Shown in pieces: positions 2,502 to 30,009 of a stretch of DNA of 64,000 nt. The stretch lies in contig OY969561.1 of NCBI GenBank assembly GCA_963701085.1, forward strand, positions 1,134,635 to 1,198,634, given 5' to 3'. How positions within the stretch are numbered: position 1 is the stretch's first letter; the number at the start of each line of letters is the position of its first letter. The notes beneath the pieces were generated by a model. The model did no database searches, was not told the origin of the DNA, and saw only the letters and a program-made list of their open reading frames with translations. The position numbers were made by a program, and so were the translations under genes. The DNA is from an uncultured bacterium (GTDB taxonomy: Bacteria > Babelota > Babeliae > Babelales > Vermiphilaceae).

Positions 2502-4976
2502 TTATAATTCTTTATTCATTACTTGTTGCGTATCAGTGACGCGCGCAAGCGTATGTTCTTCAAATCCTAGCGTAATGAGTGTATCAATAAAATCCATTGG
2601 TTTAAGTCCAATTTCAGCTGCTTGGTGGAATAAGCATGTTGCTGGTGTGAGTCCGGGTAATGTGTTATTTTCAAGAATAACAACGCGTTCTTTTTTTGTT
2701 GGGCTTTGCGTGGCTGTTTTGGTAAAAACAGTCAATGCGTGAATATCCTTTGCATTGTAGTGTTGTAAAAGCGCGTTCCATAATGCGTTGTACAAACTCG
2801 AGTGTTGCGTGTGGTAGTGGTGCGGGTGTTTGATTTTCCCCAGCACCGGGTAAGAATTTTTCTTCAATAGAAAGTATTCCTGCAGCAGAAACCGCCTGGC
2901 TTGGTGGTAATGCACGCGGATGTTCATTACCAATAACTCCCACGGTGAGTTCCATGCCGGTAATACATTCTTCTATTAATACACAATCTTTTTCTTGTAA
3001 AACTTTATTAATTGCGACAATTAATTCTTCATCATTGGTTACTTTTTGCACCATTACGCTGCAGCCATCATCATGTGGTTTAACTATGAGTGGGTATGCA
3101 AGACTATCTTTTTCTTTATCCGCACTCTTCGATACATTTTTGCAAGCAAAAACACTCAGGGCGAGCGGGAGGGGCAGAGTATTTTCTTTCTGTGAAGTTT
3201 TTTCTCCCCGCTCGCCCTGAGTGTTCTTCGTAGCTTCAGCGGAGAAGAATGTATCGAAGGGTGCAACCCACGTATTTTTCATAATCAAAATATTCTTTGG
3301 AACATCAAAGCCATGCGCAGCAAGTAGTTGGTTTGCTTTATACTTATTCATACACAACGCGCTTGCAAGCACCGATGATCCGTTATACGGCAAGCCAAGC
3401 ATTTCTAGTGTGCCTTGTACTGAACCGTTTTCACCTTCACCTCCATGCAGCGCAATAAATACAAAATCAGCAATAGATGATAAATCACCCCATTTAATTT
3501 TTTGTGATGGTTGCAACAGTTCAACAATTTCTTTAGTAGAATTACGCACGAGTTGTGATTGCGTTAAAATGTAGAGCTCTAAACTATCGCTGACAAAAAC
3601 AGGAATTGGTTCGTATTTGTGGGGAGATAGTTTATAAAATACGTTGCGGCCAGAATCGAGTGATGTTTCTTTTTCATTTGATTTGCCGCCGAGTAGTATT
3701 GCAACACGATTTTTTTGTGTATTCATAGTTGGAGATTCCAGTTTTTCTTGAGTAATAATCGTTTCCAGCATGTTGTATTGTTGGAGTTCTGTTTCAATAA
3801 TATGGTTAATAAGTTGCGCAGGGCTCATATTAATTTCTGCTGCTTGATTAAAAATATAACTTGATGGTGCCATGCCAGAGAAGGTGTTAGGATCGATAAT
3901 AACAACAGTGCCATCGTTGGTTACAAATCCATCGATACGTCCCATATTGCTCAGCTCTAATGCATGCATTACGTTAATACATGTTTGTTGAATACGTGCA
4001 GTAGTTTTAGCGCTACAGCGAGCAGGTGTACGTTTTACACCACGGCCAGGCATGTATTTTTGTTCGTAATCAAAAAAGCCTATTTCAGTGTGCGCAATGC
4101 TTTCTGTGGGAGGTAATGCAAAAAATTCACCTGTCCTGTGATCTGTTAATACAATGCAGGTAAATTCCATTCCAACAATTTTTTCTTCGATAAGTACGCG
4201 CTTTTTTTTGTTAGGATCTATACAGCACGCTTTTTTGAGTGCCTGTTCAAGAGTGCTGCTGTTTGCGATAGAAATACCAAGGCTGGAGCCTTCATTATAA
4301 GGTTTAACAACAAAATGATCAGCATTGTAGCGTGCATCGTTTTTATTCTTTAGCGCTCGTCCTGAACTTGTTGAAGGATTTTCTTCGAGCGCTCGAGGAT
4401 ATCCTTCAACAAGTTCAGGACGAGCGCCGGAACATAAAGATTGGGCAGAATTATTGCATTCTGGATAATGCCCGCATTAATAAGTCGGTCAAAAATATTG
4501 TTTTTGTAGTGCTCAAAATTATCAACTTCATATGGTTCAACGGCGATAAAGCGTGGTGTTGCAATGCCCGCATTATTGAGGAATGTTTTGAGTACAATTT
4601 TATCATTGCGTAATGCACTTGCAAGAACTCCTGAACCAAGATAGGGAATGCCAATAATTTCTAAAAAACCTTGCAATATACCATCTTCAGCGTAACGGCC
4701 ATGTTGTGCAATGTAGATAAAATCAACATGATTTTTAAGATCATCCCATGCAATAAGTTCTGCTTCATGAGTAAGGCGATGTTCAAAATCAGTTGTTTTT
4801 CCACGATGTAAAAAATGCCAAGGAAGTATGTATATTTTTGCATCACTTTGAAATAGTGGAATAACTGAATAGCGTGATGTATCAACATAATCACAGATTG
4901 TTCTGCCGGAGTTAAAAGAAACTTCTTTTTCAAGGGATTTGCCGCCCATAAGGACGCCAACGCGTAGTTTTTGCAT
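2502..4976 (-). CDS. ddl: Tandem two-domain D-alanine--D-alanine ligase, split by two frameshifts (~4350-4480 and ~2725)
   Basis: Two GGKSxEKExSxxSG starts, HGxxxEDG/ENG, (V/I)VKPxxxGxS, RIDxF and NTxPG motifs across ORFs 4350..4976, 2671..4170 (frame open upstream through HFVVKPYNEGSS) and 2502..2933. Confidence 0.85.
3122..3264. repeat. Bipartite palindromic element (A2 type), in frame inside Ddl domain 2
   Basis: Arms CTTCGATACA...CACTCAGGGCGAGCGG and CCGCTCGCCCTGAGTG...TGTATCGAAGG; encodes APFDTFF...NVSKSA. Confidence 0.9.
4353..4427. repeat. 75-bp palindromic element (A1 type) inside Ddl domain 1
   Basis: GCGCTCGTCCTGAACTTGTTGAAGGAT...ATCCTTCAACAAGTTCAGGACGAGCGC with a central CGAGCGCTCG palindrome. 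Confidence 0.95.
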
Positions 4977-5747: not shown

Positions 5748-6385
5748 TAAGATAAAGAATTAATCCCCAACTTAGACCGTTGGGGACCCAACCTTCACTT
5801 CGTTACGGTTTTTTTTTCGCAAAGGGGTTTTGCAACCCCTCTGCACTCGTGCACAAACGTTCCCTTTGATCCCTTAGACCATTTCGAATTCAGGCCACAG
5901 TCTGTTCGCAAAACTTCACAGCCTAAACCATCATGCGAAATGTGTAGGTACTTATTTTTAAATAAGAATCTATCCCTAAAGTCGAAAAATATTAAATTTC
6001 CTTCCCGCGCTCGCCCTGAACTTGTTGAAGGGTTTCTTTGAGCGCTCGGAGATATCCTTCGACAGGCTCAGGACGAGCGCTGGAGTAAGATTTCAAAAAT
6101 TGAGAATTTTTAAAGTTAATGATCGTAAGTACAACGAGGGTTACCAGCGAGTTTCTGGCATTTTTCTTAAAATGACATGGGGCTCGGTCGCCATCCAGCC
6201 GTCGCGGGATCAGGAGCAGGCTGGATCAGCGACCTTGCTTTTAACCCGTTAAGGAATCCAAGGGAACTATTGGTGCACGAGTGCAGAGGGGTTGCAAAAC
6301 CCCTTTGCGTAAATTCACTTGAGCAAAGCGAAAGTAGGGTCCCCAACGGTCTAAGTTGGGGTCTTTGTTTTAATCTTAAATCTTA
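5748..6385. mobile_element. Non-autonomous composite inverted-repeat (MITE-like) element, copy 1
   Basis: Long imperfect terminal IRs (CCCCAACTTAGACCGTTGGGGACCC...GTGCAC / GTGCAC...GGGTCCCCAACGGTCTAAGTTGGGG); internal modules shared with 29223-30009; lies between convergent orn and priA; no real ORF. Confidence 0.8.
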
Positions 6386-8443
6386 CGCAAGTGGGTTCGG
6401 CGTAAAATAAATTGAACTCGAGTAATTTTTTCTATTAATCTGCTGACACAATCGCGCAATATCAGCAAACTTTTCTGCTTTAATATAAATCTTGCGGCTG
6501 TGTATTGATTTTATTTTTGATACGGGAGGTTTGGCAGGGCCAAGAATTGTTACTGATAATGTATTATTTTTTGTATACGCGTATAAATGTTCAATAAGAT
6601 GATGTGTATCTTGTTCAAGCCGTTTTTCATTTGAGTGTTTTAATTCCAATTCTGCAAAACGCATTGCTGGTGGATAATGTAATTCAGTGCGTATTTCCAT
6701 TTCTGAATGGTAAAATTTTAAATAATCAATTTCATTTAAATGCTTAAATAACTCATGGTCAGCCATAGCCTGAATAATCACCATACTTTGTTCATGATTT
6801 CTTCCCGCACGCCCGGAGACTTGAATAAGTTGTTGCAGCGCAGTTTCGGCAGCATTATAAACGGGGAAACCCAAATGCAAATCTGCCCATAATACACCAA
6901 CCAGTGTAACATGCGGAAAATGAAATCCTTTGGTAATTGTTTGTGTGCCAACCAAGATATCTATTTTATTCTCTGTCATATCAGCAATGGTTTGTTGCCA
7001 AACTTTTTTCTTTGTGGTGGTATCCAGATCAGCGCGAGCAATAGTTGCCTGTGGGAACATTTTTTGTAAAATAGTGACTACGCGTTGCGTGCCAATTCCT
7101 TTTTTTAAAAAATCATCAGCGCTCGTTTTACAACTCGGGCACGTGGATGGCAGCATGTGTGCCATGCCACAATAATGGCACACAAGACGATTATCTTCAT
7201 GTAATGTTAAACTGACTGAGCAATTATTACACGTAAAAATATAAGTGCAGTTTTTGCATTGCACAAAAAAACTAAAACCACGCCGATTGATAAAAATAAT
7301 GGTTTGTTCATGCTTTGCTAATCGGTTTTTTATTGCAGTCTCAAGCTCTTTACTTACCCAAAACTGCTTTCTATTTTTATTCTCTGTTAAAGAAACAACC
7401 TGCACGGTTGGCAATGTTCCAGAGAATCTTTTTTTGAGTTGGAAAAAAGCCCATTTTTTTGTTTTAACATTATACAGCGTGCTGATTGATGGTGTTGCAG
7501 ATCCGAGCACAATAGGAATGCCTGCTTCTTGTGCACGCATGATAGCAGCTTCTTTGCTGTTAATTTTTGGATGTTTTTTTTCTTGATAGCCAACTTCATG
7601 TTCTTCATCAACAACAATTACGCCAAGGTTGGGAATGGGTAATAATACTGGTAGATGCACACCAATTAAAATCATTGCAGTTTTATTGTTGAGATTGTTC
7701 CATACCGCATTTTTTTCTTTGGGTGTTTTACCTGAATGAAATCCGTAAATAGGCATATCAGGTAATTCTTGCTTCAGGCGATTTTCAAAGGCAATGGCAA
7801 GCGTCACTTCCGGCAGTAATAGTAAACTGGTTTTATTTTTGCTCAGTGCCTCAAGAAAAAGATGTTTATAGACTTCTGTTTTTCCTGATCCGGTTACGCC
7901 ATGCAGGAGTACTGGCAAATAAACATTGTTACCGATGTTTGGTGTAATAAAATCACATACAGTACTTTGCTCGTTTGTAAGAGTTACTTTTTTTTGCCTG
8001 TCCTTCGAAGCTTTAGCGTAGTAGGATTCGTCGGTGAGGGTGACGGTGCTTTGTTTTGAATGGATTATTTCCTCATCCCCGCTCATCCTGAGTGTTTTTG
8101 TCTTCAAAAATGTATCGAAGGACTCTTTTTTATTGATTAAAAACTGGTGAATTCTTTTAATAAAATGAAGCGGCTCAATTTGGTAATAATCGCCCAATTT
8201 TTTTAAAAAGCTGAGATAATGCTCATCGGCAGGCAGTGGTTCAAGACCATGAATGTCTTTGATTTCAAAGGTAAGATTGTGTGGTTTTAGTGCATGCTCA
8301 TCCAAAACAAGTGCGGGGATAATACGATTACGCACCGGTACCTGTACAATGAGGCCGGATAAAGGACCGTAGTTGCAGTTTGTTGGTACTGAGTACCAGA
8401 GGGGCTCGGGTAATCCATTTAAAAGTCTGACGCGAATAAACAT
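6383..8443 (-). CDS. priA: Primosomal protein N' (replication restart helicase)
   Basis: LLHGVTGSGKTEVY, DEEHE, GSATPS, NRRGF, four CxxC zinc motifs, QVSGRAGR. Confidence 0.97.
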   Translation of the reverse strand: MFIRVRLLNGLPEPLWYSVPTNCNYGPLSGLIVQVPVRNRIIPALVLDEHALKPHNLTFEIKDIHGLEPLPADEHYLSFLKKLGDYYQIEPLHFIKRIHQFLINKKESFDTFLKTKTLRMSGDEEIIHSKQSTVTLTDESYYAKASKDRQKKVTLTNEQSTVCDFITPNIGNNVYLPVLLHGVTGSGKTEVYKHLFLEALSKNKTSLLLLPEVTLAIAFENRLKQELPDMPIYGFHSGKTPKEKNAVWNNLNNKTAMILIGVHLPVLLPIPNLGVIVVDEEHEVGYQEKKHPKINSKEAAIMRAQEAGIPIVLGSATPSISTLYNVKTKKWAFFQLKKRFSGTLPTVQVVSLTENKNRKQFWVSKELETAIKNRLAKHEQTIIFINRRGFSFFVQCKNCTYIFTCNNCSVSLTLHEDNRLVCHYCGMAHMLPSTCPSCKTSADDFLKKGIGTQRVVTILQKMFPQATIARADLDTTTKKKVWQQTIADMTENKIDILVGTQTITKGFHFPHVTLVGVLWADLHLGFPVYNAAETALQQLIQVSGRAGRNHEQSMVIIQAMADHELFKHLNEIDYLKFYHSEMEIRTELHYPPAMRFAELELKHSNEKRLEQDTHHLIEHLYAYTKNNTLSVTILGPAKPPVSKIKSIHSRKIYIKAEKFADIARLCQQINRKNYSSSIYFTPNPLA
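7997..8026. repeat. 30-bp hairpin repeat (B type), in frame in priA
   Basis: CCTGTCCTTCGAAGCTTTAGCGTAGTAGGA; encodes SYYAKASKDR on the minus strand. Confidence 0.9.
8079..8122. repeat. A2-type half element, in frame in priA
   Basis: CCGCTCATCCTGAGTGTTTTTGTCTTCAAAAATGTATCGAAGGA; encodes SFDTFLKTKTLRMSG; near-identical inverted copy at ~29515-29557. Confidence 0.9.
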
Positions 8444-29222: not shown

Positions 29223-30009
29223 AAGATAAGATTTAATCCCCAGCTTAACGCCGGGGACCCCTCCTTCGCGTAAAGCTACGGAGGGCAGGCCCACCTTCAC
29301 TTCGTTACGGTTTTCTTTTCGCAAAGGGGTCTTGCAACCCCTCTGCACTCGTGCACAAGCTTCCAGCTTGACCTCTTACGGGTTAAAAGCAAGGTCGCTG
29401 ATCCAGCCTGCTCCTGATCCCGCGACGGCTGGATGGCGACCGAGCCCCATGTCATTTTAAGAAAAATGCCAGAAACTCGCTGGTAACCCTTCATGTACTC
29501 ACAATATTTCGCACCCTTCGATACATTTTTGAAGACAAAAACACTCAGGGCGAGCGGAAAAAAATTCAAATCCTGTTCTCCCCGCGCTCGTCCTGAGCCT
29601 GTCGAAGGATTTCCTCGAGCGCAAATTTAAAAATAAGTACCTACACATTTCGCATGATGGTTTAGGCTGTGAAGCCCTGCGAACAGACTGTGGCCTGAAT
29701 TCGTCCTCCTTCGCCAAGGCTTCGAAGGATTCTTTATTTGGGTACCCGACTGTAGCGAAGCGTAAGTTGGGTTAAAAATGATCGGGGGAATCCAAGGGAA
29801 CCATTTGCCTGCCCTTCGTAGCCTTGGCGTAGTAGGGTGCACGAGTGCAGAGGGGTTGCAAAACCCCTTTGCGAAAAGAAAACCGTAACGAAGTGAAGGT
29901 GGGCCTGCCCTCCGTAGCTTTACGCGAAGGAGGGGTCCCCAACGGCCTGCCCTCCGTAGCTTTATGCGTAGGAGGGTCTAAGTTGGGGTCTTTGTTTTAA
30001 TCTTATCTT
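29223..30009. mobile_element. Non-autonomous composite inverted-repeat element, copy 2, with four nested B units
   Basis: Same outer ends as 5748-6385, internal modules in opposite orientation; B units at 29261-29290, ~29704-29730, ~29808-29836, 29903-29932 and 29946-29976 (first and fourth are mirror images). Confidence 0.8.

Follow-up and report, generated by a model that had tools for sequence, protein, structure and literature searches.

How can two repeats of one genome share their outer ends and yet carry their core in opposite orientations? The question is raised by a 64,000-nucleotide (nt) stretch of DNA from an uncultured bacterium of the family Vermiphilaceae (assembly GCA_963701085.1, contig OY969561.1), hereafter the window, which covers positions 1,134,635 to 1,198,634 of a genome assembled as a single contig of 1,198,634 bp with 37% G+C. 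The two repeats are named here e1 (5748 to 6385 of the window, 638 nt) and e2 (29223 to 30009, 787 nt). Together with a third copy elsewhere in the same genome, they belong to an undescribed family of mosaic palindromic repeats which has no open reading frame (ORF) and is restricted to one genus of the Dependentiae (TM6). The family is BIME/REPIN-like, and the flipped core is one case of a pervasive reshuffling of its modules. In what follows, G000 is the source genome, labels from G001 to G009 indicate members of the same genus, and L-numbers indicate extracted loci; coordinates are those of the window, unless they are given as genome positions.

The first-pass annotation of this DNA had described common outer ends around a flipped core, and the BLAST comparison of the two elements bears out this description, as the segments named X and Y pair only in reverse, whereas arms and ends pair directly. 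In particular, X of e1 (5885 to 5963) matches 29625 to 29703 of e2 on the reverse strand with 96.2% identity over 79 nt (E value of 3e-34), and Y with the adjoining arm (6118 to 6313) matches 29316 to 29508, again on the reverse strand, with 90.5% identity over 200 nt (E value of 2e-71), whereas the arm at 5787 to 5863 of e1 matches 29290 to 29364 of e2 directly (93.5%) and the right ends of the two elements match directly over 31 of 31 nt. These matches are far above chance level. The common left end, TTAATCCCCA(A/G)CTTA, begins at 5760 in e1 and at 29233 in e2, and the common right end, GGGGTCTTTGTTTTAATCTTA, is located at 6358 to 6378 and at 29986 to 30006, respectively, both as annotated.

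Moreover, the reverse complement of e2 is colinear with e1 over X, half of a central repeat named A, and Y, the A half being 90% identical in this colinear sense and 79% in the other; thus, the cores of e1 and e2 have a common origin as a unit. The order proposed in the annotation, X-A-Y in e1 and its reverse complement in e2, holds as far as the flip is concerned, but the two elements do not share the same middle, since e1 has a whole A repeat at its centre (6006 to 6080), whereas e2 has a half A (29582 to 29622) together with a half of a different repeat, named B (29510 to 29557). Similarly, the claim of asymmetric ends running the same way is correct for the tails, but the outer ends taken as a whole are imperfect inverted repeats, in which the asymmetric parts are only the tails of about 17 to 21 nt and a hairpin variant at the left end of e2. 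The proposed location between convergent genes, without an ORF, agrees with our data: e1 lies between the convergent frames of orn and priA, e2 lies between the convergent frames of a 144-residue protein (orf144) and pgi, and none of the six short frames inside the elements has a match in Pfam.

Both e1 and e2 are long imperfect palindromes, and the unit from which they are built is a half-element of about 230 nt. A half-element begins on the outside with an AT-rich tail; three hairpins follow, namely, the terminal one, whose stem is of 7 bp, the spacer and the arm hairpin, and further inwards come a conserved box and either cassette X or cassette Y, which are alternatives occupying an equivalent position. 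The cassette ends at an AT-rich head close to the element centre. In full elements, two halves face each other head to head, as a rule one with X and one with Y, and further small hairpin repeats (A, B, one named F, and mini-hairpins of 30 nt) are nested in their centres and arms. A regular-expression search for halves returned 38 rows, of which 33, from several genomes, were classified, after four false ends generated by nested mini-hairpins and one duplicate locus had been dropped.

In these 33 halves, the variants of each part occur with both cassettes and in almost all combinations, which strongly supports the modular assembly that the annotation had also considered. Terminal hairpin a was found with X in seven halves and with Y in three, and terminal hairpin b with X in seven and with Y in nine; arm1 accompanies X eight times and Y six times, and arm2 six and four times, respectively; the ATT-type tail was counted with X in seven halves and with Y in nine, and the TCTT-type tail with X in five and with Y in two; the box types are likewise distributed over both cassettes. 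The sole linked pair is represented by the adjacent tail and terminal hairpin (ATT with b, 15; TCTT with a, 8; other pairings, 3 and 2). Tail type carries no information on cassette type. In e1, the ATT tail is on the side of X and the TCTT tail on the side of Y, and in e2 the ATT tail is on the side of Y and the TCTT tail on the side of X; both elements are ordinary draws of an end and cassette combination. The Y side itself features spacer S2 and hairpin a in e1, and spacer S1 and hairpin b in e2.

The arms of e2 retain a trace of exchange. They are 104 nt long, 99% complementary and provided with the same mini-hairpin insert, and they are set in unlike surroundings, with terminal hairpin b outside one arm and a outside the other, and with different boxes inside. 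Arms so similar, which share an insert and have dissimilar flanks, are therefore the footprint of an arm-to-arm exchange, and we conclude that arm-to-arm exchange or homogenisation occurred in e2. The arms of e1 are 55 nt long and 87% complementary. The annotation had proposed that the core inverts by recombination between the arms; the footprint in the e2 arms and the finding of recA in the genome make this plausible at e2, the inversion event itself being one that we infer.

Further indications come from the corresponding sites in the relatives. Between orf144 and pgi, a full element is present in G007, where orf144 is next to the X-type cassette and pgi to the Y-type one, and in G005 a Y half is turned towards pgi; the spacers of five further genomes are short, and two contain B repeats. 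Since a full element or a half is already found at this site in G007 and G005, the e2 site is old and was occupied before the split. The cassette order in G000 is opposite to that of G007 and G005, and the terminal hairpin on the pgi side, together with its mini-insert, is 98% alike over 48 nt between G000 and G007 and inverted relative to pgi. Between orn and priA, instead, a lone terminator-like hairpin is present in G009 and G003, nothing is present in G002, G004 and G007 carry repeats of other kinds, and G006 carries a lone half; given that relatives have this site empty or with a lone hairpin, e1 is a later gain. Finally, cassette likeness among the three copies of G000 is 95 to 96%, while pgi and orn are 61 to 82% alike across species, and coding genes are about 79% alike with respect to the nearest species. 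This higher similarity of the cassettes than of the genes between species indicates recent copying between the elements of G000.

The halves also show a strand preference in their predicted folding. The alignment from box to tail included 27 clean halves (of the 38 rows, 11 were excluded: ten on account of nested inserts or false ends, and one because its type is divergent), for which RNAalifold predicted on the outward strand five conserved helices, with a consensus energy of -23.6 kcal/mol and 27 pairs, 14 of which with compensatory changes; for the inward strand, the corresponding values were -10.4 kcal/mol and 14. The outward structure contains 87 G.U cells at 11 positions versus 2 A.C cells at 2 positions. 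The cassettes follow the same trend (outward versus inward, -17.6 versus -12.2 for X and -22.8 versus -14.6 for Y), and the outer stem of Y exists in several different compensating versions. Furthermore, both ends of e1 scan as terminator-like and face outward, with a T run after a G+C-rich hairpin. Open frames of 90 residues or more flank 17 loci on each side; 11 of these loci are convergent, 6 are in tandem and none is divergent. Three of the 11 convergent loci are orthologous to the site of e1 or e2, and the frames are open frames rather than confirmed genes; this placement fits a role at 3' ends or in termination.

Taken together, these data represent moderate evidence that the halves are selected as outward-read single strands. 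Their most likely form would be that of outward terminators or 3'-end RNA hairpins, with hairpins of single-stranded DNA equally allowed, because G.T is also the mildest mismatch in DNA. Such strand-specific folding is a lead for an RNA-level or single-stranded-DNA-level function of repeats of this kind. In a bolder and rather improbable view, each half would encode a structured RNA of about 230 to 260 nt, transcribed outward, with a swappable 5' cassette (X or Y) and a conserved three-hairpin 3' scaffold bearing its own terminator. At L013, L019 and L038, in the relatives, the half occupies the exact place between two A halves that belongs to a GIY-YIG nuclease gene in full A elements (see below), and the RNA would be carried as mobile noncoding cargo by nuclease-associated hairpin elements; if this were true, the reassortment of cassettes would be the means by which the family diversifies. 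Fold energy as such was discarded as a proof of RNA function: the outward strand is the more stable one in all 38 rows, but 5 of the 38 are false or duplicate and the gap is mostly due to richness in G.

How could a core be turned around in such a family? Each conserved part is available both ways round within one element, and homologous recombination or gene conversion could then set the whole core, or just one cassette, in one sense or the other, the partners of the exchange being the two arms of one element or separate copies. A crossover between the arms would invert the core, and the opposite core of e2 may represent one such event, either as an inversion in place or as a copy introduced by way of the inverted arms. 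We consider it probable that the flip is a by-product of recombination through common inverted parts in a reshuffling family, without any programmed inversion, and that the halves act as outward single strands; the recombination mechanism is one that we infer.

Several points weigh against this interpretation. As for the flip, the orientation of e2 is taken from the assembly alone, the recent copying within G000 cannot be placed in order, and the copies are kin by descent, by which the counts of halves, like those of the cells in the fold, overstate the number of independent events. Moreover, whole-element transposition may have taken place: in one relative, the L002 element is nested in an A repeat and bordered on each side by GAGCGCTC, which is a possible target duplication, although GAGCGCTC is also the palindromic centre of A. 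As for the strand preference, the consensus structure was predicted on the very strand that it favours, and the outward strand is G-rich (31.6% G versus 21.2% C). Shuffled sequences alone reach -30.3 kcal/mol outward and -23.4 kcal/mol inward, and the excess over the shuffles is only -11.5 versus -9.3 kcal/mol. In addition, neither terminal hairpin of e2 was flagged as a terminator-like site, on account of an insert in the loop and of a mismatch in the stem.

The opposite orientations could also be those of a classical miniature inverted-repeat transposable element (MITE), that is, of an X-to-Y core between terminal inverted repeats which a transposase moved in trans and which landed both ways round, the common tails being a preferred target or the result of later conversion between nearby copies. 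The elements do possess terminal inverted repeats, small size, several copies and no ORF, X, the A half and Y of e2, once reversed, line up with those of e1, and the right ends of the two elements are identical over 31 nt; the setting of the L002 element and the gain of e1 at a site which is empty or holds a lone hairpin in three relatives point in the same direction. However, no target duplication was found at e1, e2 or the third copy, the ends that should be equivalent differ in spacer, box and hairpin type, and the occupation of the e2 site predates the split from G007 and G005. Among the 11 genomes of the genus, no version with an ORF came to light, the paired halves listed being all at most about 0.7 kb apart. 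The profile search of G000 (92.6% complete) returned no match for six transposase or recombinase families, namely, Y1_Tnp, DDE_Tnp_1, Resolvase, rve, Transposase_mut and the IS110 DEDD family, the control genomes being positive; the search for transposases was confined to accessions PF01797, PF01609, PF00665, PF00872 and PF01548. Thus the cognate HUH/RAYT gene that the annotation suggested looking for does not appear in G000 (PF01797, no matches), nor did any gene flanked by the same outer ends emerge from the families searched or from the paired halves of the 11 genomes. The GIY-YIG gene suggested on the same occasion does accompany the nested A and B parts, but it is missing from the outer ends of the e-type elements. 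On balance, we regard the MITE as an unlikely explanation for the flip.

Recombination through shared inverted parts, which we prefer, also differs from a programmed switch, in which the core would flip between the arms in living populations and change the cassette facing each gene. The inverted arms of e2 enclose a 480-nt segment, the cassettes are conserved and structured, and a weak hint comes from a 375-nt contig of a related organism (85 to 96% alike, and aligned below a likeness of 95%), which joins the pgi end to an arm and then to the box (29357 to 29381) that is on the opposite side in G000. In comparison with known invertons, flanking inverted repeats are present in both elements (104 nt, 99%, in e2; 55 nt, 87%, in e1), but a nearby or dedicated site-specific recombinase and an inner promoter or gene part are not. 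In fact, G000 has no Resolvase-family gene, its three frames for tyrosine recombinases (Phage_integrase type; genome positions 356,925, 437,751 and 575,621) are more than 500 kb away from e1 and e2, the e1 arms are short and divergent, and the reshuffling reaches parts outside the arms too. No credible ORF lies inside the elements, and no promoter-like site was found in e1 or e2 with the sigma-70 consensus, from which the promoters of this phylum may differ. A switch of this kind is extremely unlikely, and neither element appears to be a dedicated invertible element. In a genome rich in repeats, a flipped core does not necessarily indicate a switch, as ordinary recombination reshuffles parts that exist both ways round. 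It is very unlikely, too, that the flip was created by the assembly, with the e2 core misplaced between the near-identical 104-nt arms. The 99% likeness of these arms would permit it, no available contig spans a whole arm, and the best sequencing run holds a fraction of only 0.18 of the sampled words of the stretch. Nevertheless, the genome is one contig of 1.2 Mb, and the arms differ at one base, by which two exact unitigs (over 29301 to 29461 and 29776 to 29877) tie each arm variant to its assembled inner flank, although not to the outer one; two more unitigs cover 29357 to 29507 and 29685 to 29835, and none of the four extends across a 104-nt arm. Both combinations of tail and cassette also occur in independently assembled genomes, and the pattern is to this extent independent of e2.

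With regard to the distribution of the family, G000 contains three elements, the third one being located outside the window (genome positions 543,575 to 544,255), whose two sides bear Y and a diverged Y, respectively; X has two copies, in e1 and e2 only, and Y has three. Of the 11 genomes of the genus, 9 have halves, and G001 and G008 gave no match. Full elements with X and Y are the commonest (e1, e2, L014, L015, L017, L020 and L037), followed by those with two X cassettes (L002, L005 and L019) and by the third G000 copy with its two Y cassettes; lone halves are found at L033, L038 and L089 to L091. An exact scan with the arm hairpin over 185,579 genomes, one per species, returned seven loci, all of them, to judge by their positions, in three genomes of this genus. 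Scanning metagenomes with a 20-nt core of Y gave 12 loci, 11 of which match the elements at about 77 to 98% identity; none of the 12 has matching flanking genes, and therefore there is no close strain among them. Rfam gave no match at an E value of 0.1 or lower in four element loci, and for e1 it gave only two weak sub-threshold matches, over the A repeat. In the literature, at the level of abstracts, we found nothing on palindromic repeats or MITEs in Dependentiae. Our results add a mosaic repeat family, confined to one genus, from uncultured and symbiont-like bacteria whose genomes, although small, harbour more than 100 loci of hairpin repeats.

Two observations concern possible relatives of the e-type units. 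At about 25 sites of G000 (e.g., genome positions 308,622, 322,520 and 865,508), we could notice a further abundant repeat, with a hairpin that shares the design of the e-type terminal hairpin and is followed by a second one; this repeat directly adjoins the inner part of an A half. The lone hairpin found between orn and priA (L025, about 2070 to 2130, in G009; L030, about 2055 to 2105, in G003) has A-rich and T-rich flanks, and the same hairpin ends the e-type halves of these two genomes; it could be a minimal unit of the family or a landing site. The idea that an element body had been inserted into a pre-existing lone hairpin was rejected, as each end of the element has a complete hairpin and the pair is inverted rather than direct.

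The nested repeats are far more abundant, with 77 genome loci for A and 53 for B, and they are associated with nuclease genes. G000 has five small GIY-YIG frames, three of which lie exactly between A halves and one between B halves. The genes bracketed in this way encode proteins of about 96 residues and are located at genome positions 1,102,879 to 1,103,166, 1,091,357 to 1,091,644, 231,646 to 231,933 and 339,183 to 339,437 (loci L054 to L057), the last being the one bracketed by B halves. In the 96-residue protein, the Pfam GIY-YIG domain covers residues 5 to 77 (E value of 2e-18), and the best relatives with a solved structure are UPF0213 proteins. Within the genus, eight of the nine frames at least 68% identical to the first GIY-YIG gene have A halves on both sides, and B is on both sides of five frames at 51 to 58% identity; two frames have the third repeat, F. 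In a sample of the phylum, the gene was detected in 70 of 201 genomes (E value of 1e-10 or lower), often in multiple copies and sometimes with stop codons, and 36 of 42 GIY-YIG loci checked in the phylum are flanked by an inverted repeat 29 nt long or longer. At the level of abstracts, no work tying bacterial GIY-YIG genes to MITEs was found.

A repeats are frequent in the centres of e-type elements too, and e-type halves or whole elements are often situated between A halves, in the place of the nuclease gene (L002, L013, L019 and L038). The junction at the X head differs between the two elements of the window: in e1, the head is followed by a linker and then by the outer end of a complete A, whereas in e2 it directly abuts the inner end of the half A, as it does in L019 and L020 of another species. 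The A centre is a common point of breakage and joining. It is possible to hypothesize that cuts made by the nuclease at the A centre could drive the reshuffling.

The features of the family can be compared with those of known repeats. BIMEs, REP clusters and REPINs are non-coding mosaics of short hairpin units in alternate orientation, with variable linkers, located mainly at the 3' ends of genes; in REPINs and BIMEs, two inverted units build a larger element, and the active form would be the single-strand hairpin. The e-type elements are likewise mosaics of inverted extragenic hairpin units with a bias towards 3' ends. However, different from REPINs, they are not accompanied by a RAYT (Y1 transposase), for which G000 has no match; different from both BIMEs and REPINs, their units are longer, with three hairpins and a structured cassette of 70 to 130 nt per half, and they number just three copies in G000, with two alternative types of cassette. 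The Correia elements of Neisseria are MITEs with terminator or promoter activity. In common with MITEs of the Correia type, the e-type elements have terminal inverted repeats and terminator-like ends, lack an ORF, and are intergenic and often located between convergent genes, but they lack a cognate transposase (in the families searched) and a clear target duplication, and their ends and interiors are reassorting variants rather than copies of a single consensus.

In plastid genomes and in the yeast 2-micron plasmid, the segment between long inverted repeats flips by recombination and the repeats stay alike. The e-type elements may work like these systems, as recombination between inverted copies would invert the interior and keep the copies alike; unlike these systems, however, their arms are of only 55 to 104 nt and a dedicated recombinase is missing. 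Rickettsia palindromic elements occur inside open reading frames, and so does the nested B repeat. In this regard, a B-type repeat (3122 to 3264) lies inside the open frame of a D-Ala-D-Ala ligase (2671 to 4170, minus strand), at a gap in the match to the protein family (about residues 301 to 339); the frame is open and the repeat has the appearance of an in-frame insertion. Moreover, a B-type half repeat (8063 to 8121) is found in the 5' part of the priA frame (6383 to 8443), where the match to the PriA family starts at about residue 116, which suggests that the true start may be downstream of the B half.

For the GIY-YIG genes, a counterpart is represented by the Ssn nucleases, which are described by Chenal et al. 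(2025; PMC11893778) as small GIY-YIG proteins of the cd10448 clade, consisting of the catalytic domain only, associated with NTS/SRM hairpin repeats and able to cut single-stranded DNA beside their own hairpin. The genes bracketed by A or B share with them, as far as described there, the size of about 96 residues, the limitation to the catalytic domain, and the inverted hairpin flanks, which are also scattered genome-wide; on the basis of their sequence, they match the Ssn type and are candidate members of it. The SRM search motif, as published there (PMC11893778), has no match on either strand of G000, the loci of the A-bracketed and B-bracketed genes included, and therefore the motif of the A and B repeats differs from it. 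Dependentiae are not mentioned in the same paper (PMC11893778). Different from the Ssn system, the outer e-type element has no GIY-YIG gene. Nonetheless, a part of the repeat system considered here appears to be tied to these newly described nucleases.

The arrangement of the parts along e1 is as follows. The left half is on the minus strand and starts with the ATT-type tail (5748 to 5764), which is T-rich when read outward, followed by a terminal hairpin of type a (5765 to 5785), identified by the regular expression, with a 7-bp stem and a 7-nt loop, where a terminator-like site spans 5788 to 5762 on the minus strand. The spacer hairpin of type S1 (5786 to 5817), the arm hairpin arm1 (5818 to 5854), which is the inverted copy of 6273 to 6309 and has a helix with compensatory changes, a box of type A (5855 to 5877), and cassette X with its AT-rich head (5878 to 5963) complete this half; X-type cassettes are also found in the relatives. 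The nested A repeat has its centre, GAGCGCTC, at 6040 to 6047. The right half, on the plus strand, comprises cassette Y (6126 to 6249), a long structured hairpin whose outer stem has compensatory changes across its copies, a box of type B (6250 to 6272), arm1 (6273 to 6309), a spacer hairpin of type S2 (6310 to 6340), and a terminal hairpin of type a (6341 to 6361), which is terminator-like on the plus strand and continues into the TCTT-type tail up to 6385; the stop codon of priA (6383 to 6385) is contained in this tail.

In e2, the left half is again on the minus strand, with the ATT-type tail and a terminal hairpin of type b (29238 to 29256) at 29223 to 29256, the stem having a G.T pair on the outward strand. 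The 104-nt arm block (29253 to 29356), which includes mini-insert D (about 29259 to 29291), S1 and arm1, is complementary to 29837 to 29940 and precedes the reversed cassette Y (29378 to 29499). Beyond the half B and the half A, whose inner end is at the X head, the right half is on the plus strand and begins with cassette X (29634 to 29702), reversed relative to e1. The stretch from X to the right arm (29703 to 29836) holds mini-inserts (about 29703 to 29728 and 29808 to 29836), an unassigned insert and a box of type B (about 29776 to 29807); it is followed by the right arm block (29837 to 29940), with arm1, S1 and mini-insert D, and by a terminal hairpin of type a (29937 to 29988), which has the D mini-insert in its loop and, with the TCTT-type tail, extends to 30009. 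Four mini-hairpin inserts of 26 to 33 nt were counted in e2, situated in each arm block and in the loop of the right terminal hairpin, with related ones beside X and the right arm (29259 to 29291, 29703 to 29728, 29808 to 29836, 29902 to 29934 and 29944 to 29976). Similar mini-inserts are present at equivalent kinds of site in the relatives (e.g., L095, L093 and L037).

A last observation concerns the neighbourhood of e1. Upstream of the full ligase gene, a frame of 208 residues (4350 to 4976) matches only the N-terminal part of the D-Ala-D-Ala ligase and has an A repeat (4353 to 4427) at its 3' end; the frame could represent either a fragmentary gene or a duplication that the repeat delimits.

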